A stretch of 60,042 nt of DNA from Escherichia phage Greed, in sequence record KX534337; one strand, given 5' to 3'. This document shows positions 4,641 to 53,885 of this stretch, in pieces (the first letter of the stretch is position 1; every line of letters begins with the position of its first letter). Under the pieces are notes generated by a model. The model was not told the DNA's origin. It did not search any database and saw only the letters and a program-made list of their open reading frames with translations. Made by a program: the position numbers and the translations under genes.

Positions 4641-4846
4641 TTACCCCTTAAGTTTTGAATCATTCTATCGCAGGCAGCTTTTACAGAAGAGTTCTGCCAG
4701 TCTTCTTCAATTTGTGAAGGTTCTTCAGGCGAATAAGCAGCACTAATTAAACACTGATTATAACCTTCAATATAAGCCTGTTTTGCGGTATCTACTATTG
4801 CTTGTAAAGCAATATTGAATAATTGTTCAGACATTTTACACCTCAT
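4637..4846 (-). CDS. Hypothetical protein (69 aa)
   Basis: Small ORF translationally coupled to 4323..4640. Confidence 0.45.
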   Translation of the reverse strand: MRCKMSEQLFNIALQAIVDTAKQAYIEGYNQCLISAAYSPEEPSQIEEDWQNSSVKAACDRMIQNLRGK

Positions 4847-5061
4847 AACAGAATTGTATATACATTTTGAAGATACCCGTAACTATATGTCGAGCGAACG
4901 CGCTTTACTTTAACAATACCGCGGCTTTCCAAAATACGGATACGATTACTCACATAACCTTTACTGCGTTTAATCTTTTTAGCCATATCTTTAATACTGT
5001 AACGGTTGGAGCGTAAAAGGTCTAACAAGTAAGGACCATGATAGGAACCAATAAAGACCAT
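4843..5061 (-). CDS. Small DNA-binding protein (winged-helix/HTH-like), 72 aa
   Basis: ATG at 5061..5059 with GAGG RBS; SIKDMAKKIKRSKGYVSNRIRILESRGIV resembles an HTH; the track ORF start at 5235 lacks an RBS. Confidence 0.4.
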   Translation of the reverse strand: MVFIGSYHGPYLLDLLRSNRYSIKDMAKKIKRSKGYVSNRIRILESRGIVKVKRVRSTYSYGYLQNVYTILL

Positions 5062-5553: not shown

Positions 5554-7890
5554 TTATTTGCTTAAGTCTTTGAAAACACTCTCAATTGACTCGTCTATAT
5601 ACCATCCCAACCCCCTGAAATTACGCTTCAATGCATCCTCACGCGTAACCGGAACAAGCGCGCCCATGTCTACAAGTTGTTTGATAGTGAGGTCTGTTGC
5701 CGTACCTGCTCCCATCCTGTGATTCTTGAATGCTGCTAACCCGTAGGTTCTGCGTGTGATAGTTGCCTTCGGAATAATACCGTCAACTCGCAGCTCCTTA
5801 CGGTCACATGCAATTTTACCGCCAAGATAGTCTTTGCAAACCTGACAGATAGCCTTCACACGCGTTTCATCATCACCACCGATAGTACCTTTTTCCCATG
5901 CGTTGATCATAATGTCCTGTCCATGCGTGACAAAATCTACCGCCCATTGCATGTGATTGGGTTGAACGACAGGATTGATCCAGTTTTCCCCCACTGCTAA
6001 CAGGGATGCAAGACGCAGAGCTTTAAGGTGGGCACGGTTCCACGGCTGACGGATAGCTTCGTCTTTAGTTGCGTTAATGTGTTCATCACATAACAAGTTA
6101 AACTCCCGTTCAATCCTTTCCGCTTCAGGGCTTAACTGGACGGTAACGGTCTGGAACTTCGCCATTGTCACTAACGTGTGGTTAACGAGATGGCACACCA
6201 TGTCCTTTAATTGCTGAGGCATTGTGATTTCAGGATTCTCGTTTGCAGGAACTCGATCCCCTTCATATTGCACAATGTGGAAACGGGACAAGAAACCGTC
6301 TTCCATCATTTCACGTGTTAACGCTTCAAAGAATGTGTCCGGTGTTGTTTCGCCCAAAACGCTGAACGCCACCCCTTCCATTGTCTTGGTATTATTAGCC
6401 TTATCAGAATATCCAATACCGCCAACAACATCCATCGCACCAGATTTTTGATACACATCTGTAATAGTTTGCTTCAAGGTGTAGTTCGCAGTGCCTGGCT
6501 GAGCTGTCGCCATACCTTTAATGGTTTTACCAAACTCACCGTTAATATTCACAAACGAAGTATGATCCGCAAAACTTTTACGCAAGGCAGGACCGGAAGC
6601 ATAGTTAGTCATGTCTACAAATTCATGCACTTGCGGTAATTGCTCGCCTACTTGCTTACAGATATAACTGGGCCCAGCGTGAAGCATTTCTTTACCCACA
6701 CCTGATCGGGCAATAAGGACAAAGTAACCGTTCAGCCCTGTGTTGGTGATAGTATTCCACACCTTGCCACATACGCCGGATAAGAATGCTAAAGATGCAG
6801 TGATTGCAATTTCTTTCACCGGACGCTGCGATGCTTTGTAGATATACTTCGCAAGCTCACCAGCAAGTCCCGGCGGCCATTCAATAGCTGTTGCATCAAT
6901 GGACGTGCTTTCTGCAACTACTATTTCACCGGAAGGGCTGACTGTGGTTACAGGCATTTCCGTTACCTGCTGCATTGCACTGTGTGCGGCTTGCATACGG
7001 GCAGCGTAATCCCGCGCCAGCGCCGCTACGTTTTCCTGGGCAATACGCTCACGCTCCATGCGACCGCGACACATACGCAAACAACGGTCAATATGAACAT
7101 TGTTCTTATTAGCCTTTTCACGTTTGCCCAGTGCACTATAACGGAACAGACGACGACATTGCTCATTACTTTCTGTGTAAAATGCATACATGGAAATAAG
7201 GGCAAGGTCTGCTTCAGACTGGGAAGGGAATCCCATTTCAACCCATTCACCATTGAAGAGGCGTGCATACTTATCGCCGTTGTCCGCTTCAAGTGCACGC
7301 TGGTGAATAGTTGCATCGTCTTCTACCGGATCTTTTTCTACCAGTTCGATCTCATATGTCTTGCGCTGAAGATCAATTTCATTCACAAGCATAGTAAGAT
7401 AATGATCACGTTCTGCAACTGGTTTGTTATAGACAGGATTACCCGTGCAGATAATAAAACGCTCCTGACTATAAACCTCGACACCATCACGTCGGCGACC
7501 TTTACCGATGTTCCCTCTTAACCACAGGTGGACGCCCAAGCCTGAGCGACTTACTTCGGTGTAAGTATCGAACGCGGTCATGATCTGTTCAAAGCGGCGC
7601 AACTGTTCCGGCGTCGTGTGCTTCTTGGGATCAGGTTCATTGGTTGCGTTCTTCACATCCAGGTCGATGCAGGTGAACGGGTCTTGCGCAGTAAGCACGA
7701 AGCCAATATAAGGTTTGTTGAAATGAGCGGCGCAACCTTTAGCAGATTCAAACGTCATAAGCATATCCGGATCGGTAACGTCCGCCGCCATCAAACGCCC
7801 GATATCGTTGTCCCATACAAGAGGCTTTTTATCCGCATCGGCGACCGCCCATTGTGGGAAACCTTTAATTTCAGCGGGAAACAGTTCCAT
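5554..7890 (-). CDS. DNA primase-polymerase/helicase (prim-pol N-terminus, D5/P4-like NTPase C-terminus)
   Basis: 778 aa; N-terminal archaeo-eukaryotic-primase-like motif GLGVHLWLRG; central P-loop-like ARSGVGKE; large size and position typical of phage primase-helicases. Confidence 0.65.
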   Translation of the reverse strand: MELFPAEIKGFPQWAVADADKKPLVWDNDIGRLMAADVTDPDMLMTFESAKGCAAHFNKPYIGFVLTAQDPFTCIDLDVKNATNEPDPKKHTTPEQLRRFEQIMTAFDTYTEVSRSGLGVHLWLRGNIGKGRRRDGVEVYSQERFIICTGNPVYNKPVAERDHYLTMLVNEIDLQRKTYEIELVEKDPVEDDATIHQRALEADNGDKYARLFNGEWVEMGFPSQSEADLALISMYAFYTESNEQCRRLFRYSALGKREKANKNNVHIDRCLRMCRGRMERERIAQENVAALARDYAARMQAAHSAMQQVTEMPVTTVSPSGEIVVAESTSIDATAIEWPPGLAGELAKYIYKASQRPVKEIAITASLAFLSGVCGKVWNTITNTGLNGYFVLIARSGVGKEMLHAGPSYICKQVGEQLPQVHEFVDMTNYASGPALRKSFADHTSFVNINGEFGKTIKGMATAQPGTANYTLKQTITDVYQKSGAMDVVGGIGYSDKANNTKTMEGVAFSVLGETTPDTFFEALTREMMEDGFLSRFHIVQYEGDRVPANENPEITMPQQLKDMVCHLVNHTLVTMAKFQTVTVQLSPEAERIEREFNLLCDEHINATKDEAIRQPWNRAHLKALRLASLLAVGENWINPVVQPNHMQWAVDFVTHGQDIMINAWEKGTIGGDDETRVKAICQVCKDYLGGKIACDRKELRVDGIIPKATITRRTYGLAAFKNHRMGAGTATDLTIKQLVDMGALVPVTREDALKRNFRGLGWYIDESIESVFKDLSK

Positions 7891-7896
7891 ATTTAA

Positions 7897-8100
7897 TTAA
7901 GACCTCCGACGCTTATCGCCTTGCATCTTTTCCAGGACGGGTTCTGCTAATGAACGTTTATAGATGTACACGCTACCGATTTTAATAGCGCCGGGAATGC
8001 ATTCGCGCATTCTGGAGAGCTTAAATTTTGAAATACCGAACTGGTTTTCAATTTCGGTAGTTGTTATATAGTTGTGATTAAATTCTTCGACGTGGGTCAT
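7897..8100 (-). CDS. Small HTH DNA-binding protein (AlpA/excisionase-like)
   Basis: 67 aa; ITTTEIENQFGISKFKLSRM resembles a helix-turn-helix; basic C-terminus. Confidence 0.4.
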   Translation of the reverse strand: MTHVEEFNHNYITTTEIENQFGISKFKLSRMRECIPGAIKIGSVYIYKRSLAEPVLEKMQGDKRRRS

Positions 8101-8908: not shown

Positions 8909-8989
8909 AATCCACCTATACGCGTAGAAAGAAAGTTAATCATATAACAAAGTTTTTGTAATCGCAAAACCTTCGCAAAACTTTGTCTT

Positions 8990-9260
8990 TCCTGCATTAT
9001 ATTAAACGATAGTGCTAGTGGCCAGCATAGTGGCATCACCGCTTATAGTGCGCCGTTACTGGCTTTGCTATAGTGAGCCACTATACGCTCACTATACACT
9101 AATAACTAATTTTATTTTATTTAGTGGTAATAAAGTTTTGGGGTTTTGGGGGAGACCCCTATATATCCCGGAAAAAACAAAGAAATAGTAGTAGTAGTGA
9201 AAAACATAGTGAAATGCCACTATCTCACTATCACTACTAATTTAGTGTAAATCATGGGGG
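8990..9260. repeat. Iteron-like cluster of ATAGTG/CACTAT repeats
   Basis: At least 12 copies of (C/T)ATAGTG or its complement CACTAT within about 270 bp of non-coding DNA. Confidence 0.55.
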
Positions 9261-9299
9261 TGTCTATGTACCAAAAACCTAAAACTTTCAGTCAACAGA

Positions 9300-9420
9300 C
9301 TAAAAACGGATAGAAACTAAAAGTTAATAAGTAATACCATAAATATATATAAAATAAGGATTTATTAATAATGTATATAGTACCTATTGGTATTATTTGA
9401 ATGTTTTTGGGTCTGCAACA
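9300..9420. promoter_or_regulatory. AT-rich tract adjacent to the iterons (possible DNA unwinding element)
   Basis: About 120 bp of high A+T content (for example AAATATATATAAAATAAGGATTTATTAATAATGTATATAG) with no ORF. Confidence 0.35.
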
Positions 9421-9612
9421 AAAAGTCGCAAAACTCACAAAACCTGAACGGATGCAGATCAAAAACGAGAAGTCAAGTGCTTTTGAGGGAAATTTATTGA
9501 ACTATTGTGATCGGAAGGTATATCAAGCTATAATGCGCTTAATCGCGGGATATTGGAGGAGGACTTTATTGCGCGGTTGACCGGACCAGTAGGAGGGCTG
9601 GCCCGGAGTAGT

Positions 9613-9945
9613 TTAGAGCTGTACAGGTATGAAGTGGGCTAATGTGTCGTCGGACATGATACCCGACAATTTTTCGCTTACCCATTCGGACCAAATGCTA
9701 TCCGGTTCCTGGCGGTGCACAAACCAGATTTCGGATGTGCCTTCTTTGCGCATCGGCTGCACTTCTACAAGGAACTTGTCCTGCATAAGGCGGGTGAAGC
9801 ATACGCTAGTCATTGGAACTGGCTTTTCGTGTTTATTGTAATAAGGAGTCAGTAATTTATTTCCGAAGTTGGCAACTTCATAAACTGTTCCTTTGCGAAG
9901 ACCTCTGATGTCCGTGTAAGAGCGGATAAATGTTTTCATGTTCAC
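9613..9945 (-). CDS. Hypothetical protein (110 aa)
   Basis: ORF with RBS-like GGAG upstream; no motif. Confidence 0.45.
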   Translation of the reverse strand: MNMKTFIRSYTDIRGLRKGTVYEVANFGNKLLTPYYNKHEKPVPMTSVCFTRLMQDKFLVEVQPMRKEGTSEIWFVHRQEPDSIWSEWVSEKLSGIMSDDTLAHFIPVQL

Positions 9946-9988
9946 TCCTAGGCTCCCGCAGAAGCCCGTTGGTTGATGTGGTTATAGA

Positions 9989-10648
9989 TTATGCGTCCAG
10001 TCCGTTGTATTTGCGCCAAGCGTAGAACTGAATGGCGACCGTTGTCCCGTTGTAAGAAGGCATTGCAGCTTTCATTTCTTTCAGCTCCGGCGTGCGGCCA
10101 AGTTCAGCTAAAAGTTTGTCGCCCATTGCCCACACTTCGGCGGTTTTTCCTTTCAGAGGCTTGCGAGCGCCATTTTTGAAATCACAGCGAGCAGCTTTTG
10201 CATCCTGTTTTGGCGCGGCAGCTTTTGGCTCTTCAATTTTGATTTCAGAAACCTGCGTGGCAGCTTTTGCATGTTTCATATCTTTCTCTTCCTCCTGCTC
10301 CAGAGCTTCGAGGCAGCTTTTGACAATTTCCGGATTTACCATCGGGCGCAGTACCGAGACGCTGGCAGCTGGCGCGGCGGTCGGTGCCGGTACTTTCTGC
10401 TCCGGCTGCTGCGCTTTTTTATGGTCGCGCAGCACCTGAAGCACTTCCTTCTCGACGATGTAAAAACCGATCTCGTCCTGATGGATTAACTGTTCGTGTG
10501 CGTCGCGTGCAACCTGGCCCCAGCGAGTTTTGAGGGCGCGGCGTGCATTGGTCTTCATGGTGTAACGCATTTTGTCCTGTTCGCGGTGAGTTACTTTAGA
10601 CATGGTATAGCTCCTTTCGTTAATATTAGTTTGCTTATTACTGCCCAC
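9989..10648 (-). CDS. Ala/Lys/Glu-rich protein with conserved C-terminal domain (paralog of 53058..53885)
   Basis: 219 aa (alternative start at 10603); central KAAAP-rich low-complexity region; C-terminus VWAMGDKLLAELG...YAWRKYNGL aligns with AWALMDQISATLG...YARWKKFNGV of 53058..53885. Confidence 0.5.
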   Translation of the reverse strand: MGSNKQTNINERSYTMSKVTHREQDKMRYTMKTNARRALKTRWGQVARDAHEQLIHQDEIGFYIVEKEVLQVLRDHKKAQQPEQKVPAPTAAPAASVSVLRPMVNPEIVKSCLEALEQEEEKDMKHAKAATQVSEIKIEEPKAAAPKQDAKAARCDFKNGARKPLKGKTAEVWAMGDKLLAELGRTPELKEMKAAMPSYNGTTVAIQFYAWRKYNGLDA

Positions 10649-10676
10649 CGTAATGATGAGCAGTGTATAAGAAAAC

Positions 10677-10925
10677 TTATTGCACGATTGCTACGAAATC
10701 GGCGGTTGCGATATCCATGCTTGCGAAAGCAACGATGCCATAGTCGGTGTCGTTTTCGGCGTTAAACGCTTTGAGGAACTGCTGTACCGCTGCTTTATGG
10801 TTAAGCGTTACGTCGATAGCATAGTCCCAGCTATAGACTTTGCGCTTGCCAAAACCTTTAACTGCAATGCGTGCGCTTTTGGTGTTAGTTGGTGCCAAAA
10901 ATTTGGTGACGATAGAAGTAGCCAT
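10677..10925 (-). CDS. Hypothetical protein (82 aa), first gene of the leftward arm
   Basis: ORF with GAGGA RBS; immediately downstream of a promoter-like element. Confidence 0.45.
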   Translation of the reverse strand: MATSIVTKFLAPTNTKSARIAVKGFGKRKVYSWDYAIDVTLNHKAAVQQFLKAFNAENDTDYGIVAFASMDIATADFVAIVQ

Positions 10926-10954
10926 GATGTAATCCTCGTTTGTTTAAGTTGACT

Positions 10955-10984
10955 TATTATTGCCCAGTCAGATCAACTAGGCAA
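10955..10984 (-). promoter_or_regulatory. Putative leftward sigma70-like promoter
   Basis: Minus-strand TTGCCT, 17-bp spacer (contains GATCTGACT), AATAAT, about 25 nt upstream of the 10925 start. Confidence 0.35.
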
Positions 10985-11349
10985 GATATAAATCACTTAA
11001 TTTGTACTAAATCGTATTCCTTGTAAATGTCGCTAATGTACATATCGAACTGACCCATTAAGAAGATTTCGGCCTCCTCCCAGCTTGGGCAGATACATAA
11101 CCAGCTATTTTACCGGACGCGAGTTCCACTAATTTGAATTCCATGATGCAACCCTTAATGTGGTTAAGCAGTATTGCTTTGTTGAAGTAATAATAGCCTT
11201 GCATCGTGATATTGAATAGGCCAAAAGTGCTCTTTTAGAATTGTTTTGCATCTAGTGAAAAATACGCTTGCCCTGCATGTTTAGCACTAAGGGCCTAACT
11301 AACATCACATTATCTGGAGTATTCGCACGGGCACACACATGCTTATAAG

Positions 11350-11440
11350 GTGTGCCGGATCGACCAGGGGCATCCGGGTCCTGCGTGTGCGGAACCTACC
11401 AGGTGGGAGCAGCTCCCGCGTGTGCCGGAAATACCAGGGG
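11350..11440. repeat. Three imperfect GC-rich direct repeats (about 35-bp period)
   Basis: GTGTGCCGGATCGACCAGGGG (11350), GTGTGCGGAACCTACCAGGTGG (11385), GTGTGCCGGAAATACCAGGGG (11420); an inverted arm GGCACACAC lies just upstream. Confidence 0.6.
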
Positions 11441-11493
11441 CGCGCGAGCCCATGCACTTTACAAAATATTTTTATAAAAAGTGCAAAAAGGTG

Positions 11494-11522
11494 TAGACAC
11501 ATGATCGGTCTAGCACTACTAT
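11494..11522 (+). promoter_or_regulatory. Putative rightward promoter (TAGACA, 17 bp, TACTAT)
   Basis: -35 TAGACA, spacer containing CATGATCGGTCT, -10 TACTAT; a near-identical element recurs at 12337..12365. Confidence 0.4.
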
Positions 11523-11573
11523 ATACACATACCGCAAGGGTACTACAAATCAACTAATTTACGGGGGTACAAA

Positions 11574-11837
11574 ATGGTCCGCATCCTGGAACGTTATAAA
11601 AACGAAGCTACTGGCGCTATTGCATTCAAACGTATGTTAGTAAAACAAATCGACGGTTTATTCCGTGTTGTTAAAGAAGTCGATTACGGCAACGGCGCAG
11701 GGGTAAGCACCACTATCGTCCCGGGCATTAAAGCGTATAAAACTTTAAAAGGCGCCGAGAAAGCCTTAGCCGCCTGGAAACCTGCTCGTTATCAAATGTC
11801 CCGTGTCGAAGGGCTTATGCAGGAAGGTAAGATCTAA
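11574..11837 (+). CDS. Hypothetical protein (87 aa), first gene of the rightward arm
   Basis: ATG preceded by ACGGGGGTACAAA; the same leader/RBS is found upstream of 12399. Confidence 0.5.
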   Translation: MVRILERYKNEATGAIAFKRMLVKQIDGLFRVVKEVDYGNGAGVSTTIVPGIKAYKTLKGAEKALAAWKPARYQMSRVEGLMQEGKI

Positions 11838-11905
11838 GTTTGTTTATACAATGGGCATTAATACAGTGCCCATTAATAAGCTAACTAATCATATCGAGGT
11901 ATATT

Positions 11906-12190
11906 ATGTCCATCGTCACTATGTCGTTCTTCGACCATTGCAATAACGAAAAACAAATTATCGTGAACCTGCAAAAAGGATCTGTTGTCGCACGCAATGC
12001 TAACCGCCAATGCATCGCGCTAACCGATTTTGCTTTCCGCCTTAACGTGGACAACACCACCGCCAAAAATATCGTTCACGATACAGCGTTGGAAGCTGCT
12101 CACGCTGCGAAGGATAAAGGTATCCGCGACGCACGCAAAATCATGCACAAGGCGCTCGGCATCACGTTCTTCGTTGGGATTAAGGGGTAA
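11906..12190 (+). CDS. Hypothetical protein (94 aa)
   Basis: GAGGT RBS 8 nt upstream of ATG. Confidence 0.5.
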   Translation: MSIVTMSFFDHCNNEKQIIVNLQKGSVVARNANRQCIALTDFAFRLNVDNTTAKNIVHDTALEAAHAAKDKGIRDARKIMHKALGITFFVGIKG

Positions 12191-12195
12191 CTACT

Positions 12196-12339
12196 ATGTC
12201 ACGCAAATACACGCTTACACGCGCACAGCACGCGTTATTATTGCAGGTTATGCGCATGGAGTACGAAGAGACTACATGGGCGCAGGCTATGCAGACAGGG
12301 CGCGAGTTCTACGCGCAACTAATAGCACAAAATGCCTAG
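12196..12339 (+). CDS. Possible small protein (47 aa)
   Basis: ATG 5 nt after the upstream stop with AAGGGG RBS; open to TAG at 12337; below the ORF-track length cutoff. Confidence 0.3.
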   Translation: MSRKYTLTRAQHALLLQVMRMEYEETTWAQAMQTGREFYAQLIAQNA

Positions 12340-12365
12340 ACAACATGATCGGTCTGGTGGATACT
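12337..12365 (+). promoter_or_regulatory. Second copy of the TAGACA/CATGATCGGTCT promoter-like element
   Basis: TAGACA, 17-bp spacer with CATGATCGGTCT, GATACT; followed by the conserved ACGGGGGTAAACAAA leader before the 12399 start. Confidence 0.4.
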
Positions 12366-12398
12366 ACACACATCAACCAAACAACGGGGGTAAACAAA

Positions 12399-12626
12399 AT
12401 GCGTAGTTTCAAATGTGTAAGCGTAAATGCTACTGGTAACGGTCTGTTCACGGCAGGTAATGTATATGACTTCAACATGGAAAGTTATAAAGACACAACG
12501 CTTACAGGTGTAATGTTCGGTGGCGCTCGTGTCGTTCGCTGCCATTTAAACAAGAACACGGAAAATAAATATACCCTTATCAGTCGCTACACGGGCGAGC
12601 CGTTAGCTGTGTTCCATGCAGCTTAA
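12399..12626 (+). CDS. Hypothetical protein (75 aa; track ORF starts at 12030)
   Basis: ATG at 12399 has the conserved leader/RBS shared with 11574; the longer upstream extension overlaps other genes and lacks an RBS. Confidence 0.45.
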   Translation: MRSFKCVSVNATGNGLFTAGNVYDFNMESYKDTTLTGVMFGGARVVRCHLNKNTENKYTLISRYTGEPLAVFHAA

Positions 12627-12702
12627 GCTATAACGCACACAGCGCCGCGCTAGTGAGCTAATGTACATAGGTAATGGTAATGCATTAGCTCGGGCGAAAC
12701 AG

Positions 12703-12750
12703 GCGCACAGCGTCGCGCACAGCTCGCACAGCGCACACAGACCCACGCAG
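12703..12750. repeat. Tandem GCGCACAGC-like repeats in a 430-bp non-coding region
   Basis: GCGCACAGC, GCGCACAGC, GCACAGC, GCACACAG in tandem; strongly C+A-rich on the plus strand. Confidence 0.45.
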
Positions 12751-13060
12751 GCCCAGCCGCGCAACCCGACCCATCCTTTTCCAGGTACTTGGATCGCTGG
12801 GGCGTGCCCTGTCTATCCTGATAGTAAGTCCTTGCCTAAATCTCACCTGTCACATCCCTATCCACCTACATCCATGACCCCACCTACCTTCTTTTTGAAT
12901 ATATTGCGCTCATCCTTTCTAAATATATGGATTTTGGTAGTAAATTCTGAGTCGTCAACGTATAATTCGTCTTGTAGCTGCTCCATAGCTACCATCTTTA
13001 AGCGGATGCAACCAATTTCTATCAATTCACACCTGTTTTTAGAGCATCAAGGAGGTATTT

Positions 13061-53057: not shown

Positions 53058-53885
53058 TTACAAGCCGTTCAGGGCTTCCGGTACTGGCATAGGTACGCGA
53101 CCAGTTACACCATTAAACTTCTTCCAACGTGCATACTGAGTTTTAACGGTATCTTCGTTCAGACCGTGACGACCTGCTAGATTCAGAACATAAGAGATTG
53201 GAGCAGGCTGACCCAGCGTAGCGCTAATCTGATCCATCAGGGCCCAGGCACGACCGCAGGAAGTTTCAGGTTGCGGACGACGAACACCATTCTGTTCAGG
53301 CATACGGTTCGCTTCTTTCGCTTTTTCACGTTCAGCTTTTTCGCGGGCTTTTTCAGCAGCCTTTTCAGCCTGTTTAGCAGCGCGGATCTTGTCTTTGAAG
53401 CCTTTGATAGACGAATCCAGTTCGTCAACCATGCTCTGAGCAGCAGTTACTGCACCGGACAGATCTTCACCTTTGGATTTTTTAACAACTGCTTTCAGCT
53501 CTTTCAGAGCATTCTTTAAATGCTTCAGCTGTTCAGAACCCTTAGATTCTGCTTCCGTGATCTGATCAACAGTGCTTTCATCGGTAATACCGGATAAAGC
53601 AAACTTCACGGTTTCAACTACCTGGGAAAGAGCGGTAAATTTATTTTCAGCTTCAGTACGAATTTCAGCTTGTTTCTTTTCAGCGGCAGCTTTTTTCTCT
53701 GCTTCTTTTTTCTCTTTTGCTACGCGTGCAGCTTCAGCGGCAGCGGCTTTTTTAGCTTCTGCGTCGTTAGCAGTAGCTTCTTTCTTTGCAGGCTTAGCAG
53801 ATTTTGCAGCGGCAGCAGCGGCTGCGGCAGCAGCGGCTGCGGCAGCAGCGGCTTTCTTATCTTCAATATTACTCATTTTCTTCAC
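53058..53885 (-). CDS. Ala/Lys/Glu-rich histone-like protein with poly-Ala tract and conserved C-terminal domain (paralog of 9989..10648)
   Basis: 275 aa; 19-residue poly-Ala run, KAAAE-type repeats, C-terminal domain aligning with 9989..10648. Confidence 0.5.
   Translation of the reverse strand: MKKMSNIEDKKAAAAAAAAAAAAAAAAKSAKPAKKEATANDAEAKKAAAAEAARVAKEKKEAEKKAAAEKKQAEIRTEAENKFTALSQVVETVKFALSGITDESTVDQITEAESKGSEQLKHLKNALKELKAVVKKSKGEDLSGAVTAAQSMVDELDSSIKGFKDKIRAAKQAEKAAEKAREKAEREKAKEANRMPEQNGVRRPQPETSCGRAWALMDQISATLGQPAPISYVLNLAGRHGLNEDTVKTQYARWKKFNGVTGRVPMPVPEALNGL

Follow-up and report, generated by a model that had tools for sequence, protein, structure and literature searches.

Arrays of tandem direct repeats in non-coding DNA have been described as the ori iterons of lambda, the ori and crr repeats of P4 and the 43-bp sopC repeats of F, which share a core of ~20 bp and a less conserved segment between the cores, and iteron and operator arrays of this kind are required in cis and co-vary with a known binder. 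Bacterial and phage intergenic minisatellites (VNTRs), which are young and homogeneous, consist of head-to-tail copies; their copy number is polymorphic in near-identical genomes, and indels fall at the boundaries of the repeats. T4-type phages carry PeSL cassettes, which, as reportedly described by Arbiol et al. in 2010, combine an early promoter with a stem-loop, and E. coli carries REP/BIME elements with a unit length of ~35 nt. Here we analysed an array of GC-rich direct repeats in the early region of a Seuratvirus phage. Literature searches found no description of it; the element is of an ordinary kind, namely a tandem repeat between genes or possibly an array of accessory binding sites, and it is its place that is new.

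The Seuratvirus array resembles iteron and operator arrays in its tandem, direct, non-coding cores and less conserved inter-core segments, in adjoining an AT-rich tract and a promoter, and in its variable copy number. Unlike them, it is missing from about half of the genus, irregularly spaced (27–37 nt), GC-rich and asymmetric, and its binder is only putative. It is like VNTRs in its head-to-tail copies, its copy-number polymorphism and its boundary indels, which are consistent with slippage or unequal recombination, but its units are old, with diverged tails and a kept core. As in PeSL cassettes, hairpin-capable GC-rich sequence directly precedes an early-promoter cassette that is conserved and occurs more than once, and the surrounding early region is hyperplastic, with exchange of small genes; unlike in those cassettes, the hairpins are embedded in a tandem repeat with a shared core, and there is one array only, the second promoter cassette near 12333 having none. 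Units of REP/BIME length were also compared with that family. Unit 1 begins GTGT-GCCGGAT and ends GCATCCGG, where K-12 REP has GTAG-G(C/T)CGGAT...GCATCCG(G/A)C. A REP/BIME identity was rejected, since the units begin GTGT and not GTAG, only unit 1 is palindromic, its interior is unrelated and all units are direct and at one locus; nor did any of 5,426 complete E. coli genomes match the array by BLAST.

Results

Genomic context of the array

A 1.2-kb query around the array retrieved 34 phage records, nearly all of them Seuratvirus (Queuovirinae), and CAjan, CSP1 and KS_A8 were ~94% identical to it over its full length. From these matches, the 60,042-nucleotide stretch of DNA that was analysed (the window) reads as the essentially complete genome of a virulent, dPreQ0-modifying E. 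coli siphophage of this genus, with a GC content of 44.6%. Leftward from 11204 lie small ORFs and then the primase (5554–7890), and the gene block wraps round to DNA-metabolism and modification genes; rightward from 11574, small early ORFs lead to the terminase, portal, capsid and tail genes. The full annotations of GottfriedDienst and Skure have a matching layout, and neither of these complete genomes has an integrase or repressor as judged from its annotation. The array sits between the last leftward and the first rightward ORF (Table 1), and the initial annotation was right to place it where leftward and rightward genes diverge.

Downstream of the array lies a rightward early promoter candidate, the TAGACA-17-TACTAT cassette of which is at least 90% conserved in 26 records, 12 of them without the array. 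The array ends 37 bp upstream of its −35 hexamer, and the intervening AT-rich tract is in the position of an UP element and may function as one. To the left of the array is a conserved flank of ~140 nt containing a leftward promoter candidate that here matches 8 of 12 consensus positions and falls under the threshold of the promoter scan; the scan lists a plus-strand TTGAAT-18-TAGAAT overlapping it, the −10 of which is not conserved in Skure or KS_A8. Both candidate promoters point outward, and neither predicted transcript crosses the array. If the promoter assignments are right, the array is predicted to lie in an untranscribed spacer between divergent promoters.

Several other features of the early region were observed. 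The leftward promoter candidate is bracketed by a 26-nt imperfect inverted repeat (73%; 11206–11231 and 11283–11308), which adjoins the last leftward ORF at its start codon and is conserved in relatives, array-less ones too; when it is included in folding, the z-score is about −2.5 on both strands. A second early-promoter cassette at 12333–12365, TAGACA-ACATGATCGGTCT...TACTAC, contains the same conserved GATCGGTCT spacer as that at 11494–11522, and the repeated cassette may serve as a module for recombination or for regulation in the early region. In WildeMaa (~1840–2125) and SA80RD, a promoter of this type precedes a purine-rich, apparently non-coding leader of ~270 nt, AAAGGAAAGGGAAGCAGAAG..., which ends in TCCGGGAC direct repeats and may be a structured leader or a small RNA.

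Table 1 Features of the array and of the spacer that contains it (positions in the window)
Feature	Coordinates	Strand	Remarks
Repeat unit 1 core GTGTGCCGGATCGACCAGGGGC	11350..11371	+	Reference copy; orthologous to CAjan unit 2 and GottfriedDienst unit 1
Repeat unit 2 core GTGTGCGGAACCTACCAGGTGG	11385..11406	+	73% to the reference copy (unit 1)
Repeat unit 3 core GTGTGCCGGAAATACCAGGGGC	11420..11441	+	86% to the reference copy (unit 1)
Whole GC-rich island	11346..11457	.	68% GC; varies among relatives, some having it, some a rearranged form and some none
Weak inverted partial copy of the 5' half of the unit, TCGCACGGGCACAC	11323..11336	+	Against 11350–11363; 14 nt, 79% complementary
Last leftward small ORF	11058..11204	-	48 aa here, 70 aa in CAjan; start codon adjoins the conserved left flank
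First rightward gene	11574..11837	+	87 aa, function unassigned, phrog_27467; ORF list, homology
AT-rich tract CAAAATATTTTTATAAAAAGTGCAAAAAGG	11458..11493	+	Directly upstream of the −35 hexamer; kept in all relatives
Rightward early promoter candidate TAGACA-17-TACTAT	11494..11522	+	Conserved GATCGGTCT spacer; promoter scan
Leftward promoter candidate TTCACT-16-TAAAAG	11232..11259	-	TAAAAT in CAjan; putative, read by eye

Structure of the repeat units

The repeat search returned three imperfect 22-nt copies with the consensus GTGTGCCGGA-N3-ACCAGGKG, starting at 11350, 11385 and 11420 (spacing 35/35), and Tandem Repeats Finder (TRF) gave 11350–11441 the highest score in the window (94; period 35, 2.6 copies, 73% matches). 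These results confirm the three GC-rich direct repeats at ~35-bp spacing that had been noticed in the sequence, and correct the gap inside the unit, which had been given as 4 nt and is 3 nt from GGA to ACCAGG. GC content is 65–68% in the array versus 33–46% in the flanks. A degenerate pattern drawn from the three copies occurs only at those three sites in 60 kb, against 0.14 expected, a test that is partly circular as the pattern derives from the same copies; the pattern scan found no further copy of the core elsewhere in the 60-kb genome. The second-highest TRF score belongs to a perfect 15-nt × 3 tandem repeat, GCGGCAGCAGCGGCT, at 53809–53853 in the minus-strand ORF 53058–53885, which is probably a coding low-complexity repeat.

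Each 35-nt unit consists of a conserved 22-nt head and a 13-nt tail. Paralogous heads are 73–86% identical and tails 38–54%, with 29% expected for random sequence of the same composition. Every tail can form a small hairpin, the sequence of which differs from unit to unit: unit 1 together with 11372–11384 holds the short palindrome GCCGGAT...ATCCGG, and the unit 2 core is followed by the hairpin-capable GTGGGAG-CAG-CTCCCGC. Among 18 distinct units from all relatives, which derive from two array lineages and were aligned with ACCAGG as the anchor, G(-6), A(-4), ACCAGG, K(+6) and G(+7) were constant, and GTGYGC usually precedes them. The inverted arm that had been described just upstream of the repeats does exist, but it is weak and belongs to the conserved flank, being present in array-less relatives too; it overlaps a 12-nt alternating purine-pyrimidine run at 11331–11342. 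All relatives have a perfectly alternating tract at this position to the left of the array (~584–606 in GottfriedDienst, ~1242–1265 in SeppeHuegi), with the alternation kept and the sequence different (CG versus CA/TG), and it may confer Z-DNA-forming potential between the divergent promoters.

Other identities were considered and set aside. CCWGG (Dcm/EcoRII) sites are no special feature of the array, as 88 occur in the genome and they are not avoided elsewhere. Compared by eye with consensus sequences, neither sigma-54, sigma-32 and N4-type hairpin promoters nor FadR and RutR operators, the EcoKI site, Chi and G-quadruplexes fit the spacing or all of the units. A scan for tRNA and tmRNA found none. 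CRISPR arrays have repeats of 28–37 nt with the hairpin of the host system and spacers of ~30 nt or more; the 22-nt core and 13-nt tail of the present array led us to reject both a CRISPR array and a solitary-repeat RNA anti-CRISPR, and the I-E and I-F repeats of E. coli presumably have no hairpin in common with it.

Distribution among relatives

The segment between two conserved anchors was extracted from 18 phage records or contigs and 9 further contigs. Across the ~30–33 related genomes and contigs surveyed, a GC island is kept in some form in ~16, and the array is absent from at least 17, which all have the same junction, flanks, promoter and gene order. The locus takes four states: window type, GottfriedDienst type, scrambled GC island, and nothing. 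Window-type arrays have four units in CAjan, CSP1, KS_A8, Dru_SM1 and one Logan contig, and three in the window and one identical Logan contig, the window lacking the first unit of CAjan (alignment A1); CSP1C was placed in this type from BLAST coverage only. The GottfriedDienst type, with three to four diverged units and extra hairpins, occurs in GottfriedDienst and SLUR25/63, and in the metagenome contig L160 (PPYE01311188.1) with one unit inverted. SeppeHuegi, ECP2304 and SA126VB have a GC island of 75–100 bp with no or one recognisable unit. The array-less junction was read in Skure, slur01, KurtStettler, KS_A3, PLYYY01, yong3, SA80RD and five further contigs beyond a duplicate of slur01, and was always ATATAAAGCTGCCAAA(A)TATT; ATATAAAGCTGCCAAAATATT spans the point occupied by the island in the window, and the Skure-type junction is ATATAAAGCTGCCAAAAT. 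A further five (phiG7, OddieOddie, RCIP0359, SD04 and KS_S4) were counted as array-less from BLAST coverage, with the junction unread.

The number of units is thus 0, 1, 3, 4 or 4–5 among relatives with flanks 79–97% identical, and the length of the island varies from 0 to 160 bp. Units are spaced 27–37 nt apart, and how far the last of them stands from the promoter depends on the array type; the units therefore have no helical phasing. Orthologous units of the two array lineages are 73–78% identical, compared with 79% for neighbouring non-coding DNA. On the other side, lineages with flanks only 79–87% identical share the last-unit core of 19 nt without any difference, and the unit 3 segment CCGGAAATACCAGGGGCGC is identical between window-type and GottfriedDienst-type arrays. 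In the first full unit, the 8-nt loop between CCGGATC and GATCCGG is exactly inverted in L160 relative to SLUR25 (CCCTGGTA versus TACCAGGG), which reads as a hairpin-mediated micro-inversion between otherwise near-identical arrays. Head-to-tail copies (period 35, 2.6–3 copies) with copy-number polymorphism are what is found in a tandem repeat or minisatellite. Variable units, divergence between lineages and absence in relatives together indicate, as far as comparison of the records goes, an array that is old, structurally unstable and dispensable.

Beyond the genus, a search of 185,579 species genomes and of viral contigs with the three-unit pattern gave no related array, all matches being unrelated repeats, either perfect tandem or coding ones. 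An exact-flank scan of viral contigs gave no match, and a first scan of them with GCCGGANNNACCAGGGG was too unspecific, giving more than 100 chance single matches. The last-unit core had one match in viral contigs, a chance one, and 27 in metagenomes, where L160 was the only Seuratvirus sequence and the others were chance matches in GC-rich DNA.

When every ORF of the window was compared with GottfriedDienst, which has an array, and with Skure, which has none, the adjacent 87-aa ORF (11574–11837) was the only credible gene to co-occur with the array. By tblastn, it is in exactly the Seuratvirus records that have multi-unit arrays, with the exception of Dru_SM1, which has the array without the ORF. 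Its product is ~90% identical in Wifcevirus myophages and also occurs in Drexlerviridae and in Klebsiella, Serratia and Pectobacterium phages, and no array was found near the homologs in the two neighbourhoods inspected (Wifcevirus and the Drexlerviridae phage MM01). Since homologs in other families stand without a neighbouring array, physical linkage is the best explanation of the co-occurrence, and the 87-aa protein appears to be the product of a promiscuous small early gene.

Terminal duplications around the locus

Exact terminal duplications were found in two independently deposited records, ECP2304 (OR880647.1; 1–3695 = 59896–63590) and yong3 (OM868075.1; 1–3424 = 59400–62823), and both contain the array locus. 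Their right boundaries are homologous, lying immediately before (A)TCCATCCTGATAGTA and mapping to ~12810 in the window, and the left boundary of ECP2304 maps to ~9222. The two exact duplications with a shared right boundary suggest a probable direct terminal repeat of 3.4–3.7 kb, at ~9222–12810 in the window, enclosing both the array and the divergent early promoters. A terminal repeat of 1,091 bp has been reported in a related Pseudomonas phage of the Queuovirinae (PMC10484667), and literature searches found no published statement on Seuratvirus termini.

Repeat-rich non-coding regions lie at both inferred boundaries. The left boundary falls within a non-coding region of ~650 bp at 8930–9600, which carries ATAGTG/CACTAT repeats (9010–9100 and 9190–9240) and short repeats of the GTTTTGGG / GCAAAAC type, has an equivalent gap of 830 bp in GottfriedDienst, Skure and ECP2304, and is a candidate origin, terminus or packaging region. 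At the right, 12630–12810 is GC-rich and non-coding, with ~5 tandem CGCACAG heptamers at 12703–12740 (TRF) just inside the boundary.

Discussion

We tentatively favour the view that the array is a lineage-restricted, dispensable, GC-rich minisatellite acting, if at all, as double-stranded DNA, possibly as an accessory cluster of binding sites or as a modulator of spacer length. Because old paralogs keep a head of ~20 bp while their tails drifted, the heads may be recognition sites. The asymmetric core G-GA-N3-ACCAGG-K-G, usually after GTGYGC, would then be the site of a putative sequence-specific DNA-binding factor of the host or the phage, which would modulate the neighbouring early promoters, its input being accessory and not essential; in addition, an island of varying length would set the divergent promoters closer together or further apart and so alter their coupling. 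A binding-site cluster is supported by an array that is real and unique in the genome, by cores that are more alike than tails and constant across units of two lineages, and by a last-unit core identical across diverged lineages. It is further supported by a position near a conserved promoter and outside the predicted transcripts together with the lack of an RNA signal, and by retention of a GC-rich island in ~16 of ~33 genomes despite an AT-rich, compact intergenic region. Against it stand the absence from at least 17 relatives, the unfixed spacing, the inverted unit in L160, the divergence of orthologous units as fast as neighbouring non-coding DNA and the confinement of the core to the array locus within the genome. 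Co-occurrence identified no binding protein among the window ORFs, only the adjacent 87-aa gene co-occurring. The proposal in the initial annotation that the repeats are protein-binding sites is therefore retained as the leading, unproven reading of the array at the DNA level, but the switch role that had been attached to it is unsupported.

A neutral minisatellite, generated by slippage or unequal recombination in a recombination-prone junction of the early region, functionless and kept or lost by drift and hitch-hiking, is nearly as likely as binding sites. Absence of the array from at least 17 relatives with a locus that is otherwise unchanged fits this account directly, as do the varying copy number, spacing and content with one unit inverted, the divergence of orthologous units at the rate of flanking non-coding DNA, and the failure to find a partner protein or other genomic sites. 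It sits less well with old paralogs whose cores are clearly more alike than their tails and with the unchanged last-unit core of diverged lineages, and 100–160 bp of functionless GC-rich DNA would be unusual in a compact phage genome of 44.6% GC.

More speculatively, the array could be a modular tuning element of the genome region that Seuratvirus phages express first, horizontally gained and lost, comprising either sites for a DNA-binding factor or a supercoil-responsive element, and balancing the divergent early promoters within the probable terminal repeat. The factor would possibly read dPreQ0-modified GA/GGC motifs, which are contained in every core.

It is unlikely that the array works through DNA structure, forming cruciforms or Z-DNA under negative supercoiling between strong divergent promoters and so buffering torsion and promoter coupling. 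Ranked by alternating purine-pyrimidine runs of 7 nt or more, 11331–11470 comes second among the 140-nt segments of the genome, but its own runs are short (8–12 nt) and not statistically exceptional; the perfectly alternating tract of the flank is 12 nt here and 23–24 nt in GottfriedDienst and SeppeHuegi. All unit tails are hairpin-capable, and the CCGGATC/GATCCGG loop inversion between SLUR25 and L160 would fit hairpin- or cruciform-mediated rearrangement, but the hairpins are not maintained by compensatory change and the array as a whole is dispensable.

An essential cis-acting site, whether iterons of a replication origin beside an AT-rich unwinding element or a site for terminase, or else a REP-like relic of a mobile element, is very improbable. 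As in an iteron origin, three direct repeats of ~20 bp are followed by AT-rich sequence, CAAAATATTTTTATAAAAAG, the locus is inside the probable terminal repeat, and the arms of unit 1, GCCGGAT/GCATCCGG, are common to the E. coli REP element. However, an iteron origin is required in cis, and at least 17 viable relatives with the same primase, helicase and polymerase genes lack the array, which therefore excludes an essential role in origin function or packaging. A terminase or terminus site is also contradicted by the distances of ~2.1 kb and ~1.4 kb from the terminal-repeat boundaries, which are themselves inferred from sequence records. A mobile-element relic would not be expected to have a single palindromic unit at a single locus, with no BLAST similarity to the E. 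coli genomes and nothing similar in the species genomes searched.

The suggestion that the repeats form a structured RNA fares no better; a structured or sponge RNA, in which the units of a transcribed array would fold to form the motifs of an RNA-binding protein or would simply display them, is a most improbable explanation. Unit tails can form small hairpins, and C-to-T changes in the unit 2 variant preserve G-U pairs on the plus strand only, but folding energies of the region, the check proposed in the initial annotation, equalled those of dinucleotide shuffles (z −0.23 on the plus strand and −0.08 on the minus strand). RNAalifold of seven orthologous arrays gave a covariation term of +0.64, which is no support, with double changes only in a long-range helix between lineages, and no compensatory changes were found for the unit-2 hairpin in KS_A8 and CSP1, where it is broken. 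Rfam gave no match in the whole window at the gathering score and nothing credible in 11150–11650 at E<=10. A site scan found no conserved promoter reading into the array, both flanking candidates pointing away from it, and no terminator-like site after it.

Least probable of all are operators of a transcriptional switch that toggles leftward and rightward transcription through the small proteins encoded at 4843–5061 and 7897–8100, both of which had been put forward as helix-turn-helix (HTH) partners: the direct repeats do lie between divergent gene blocks and the former protein is a MarR-like winged helix, but the phage is apparently virulent with no repressor or integrase annotated in complete relatives, the sites are clear of both sets of promoter hexamers, the array is absent or scrambled in relatives of the same gene order (the outcome that the initial annotation had named as speaking against its proposal), and the 7897–8100 protein has no detectable DNA-binding domain. 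The 4843–5061 protein is in no other Seuratvirus record and therefore cannot be the cognate of an array common to CAjan, CSP1, KS_A8 and GottfriedDienst. This minus-strand gene encodes 72 aa; tblastn of the protein against 50,697 phage records gave a single match, to a gene of a Salmonella phage at 41% identity, and the protein appears to be an accessory regulator unique to the present phage. A switch of the lambda OR/OL kind was rejected, as the phage is not temperate and the putative operators neither overlap the promoters nor are conserved with them. The interpretation as a switch or a structured RNA was thus largely wrong.

The direct importance of the array is modest, and one consequence of the analysis is that a tempting 'genetic switch' annotation is removed from a virulent phage. 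The terminal-duplication finding may be more useful, for the annotation and engineering of Queuovirinae genomes. At the point of divergence, the left flank and the flanking promoter cassette are the conserved control elements, and the conspicuous repeats are not. CAjan, CSP1 and GottfriedDienst on one side and Skure, KurtStettler and yong3 on the other form a natural series, with and without the array and with different copy numbers, that is suited to asking whether upstream spacer content tunes divergent early promoters; engineered mutants of CAjan already exist. If the array is a tuning element, phages with and without it would be adapted to different hosts or conditions.
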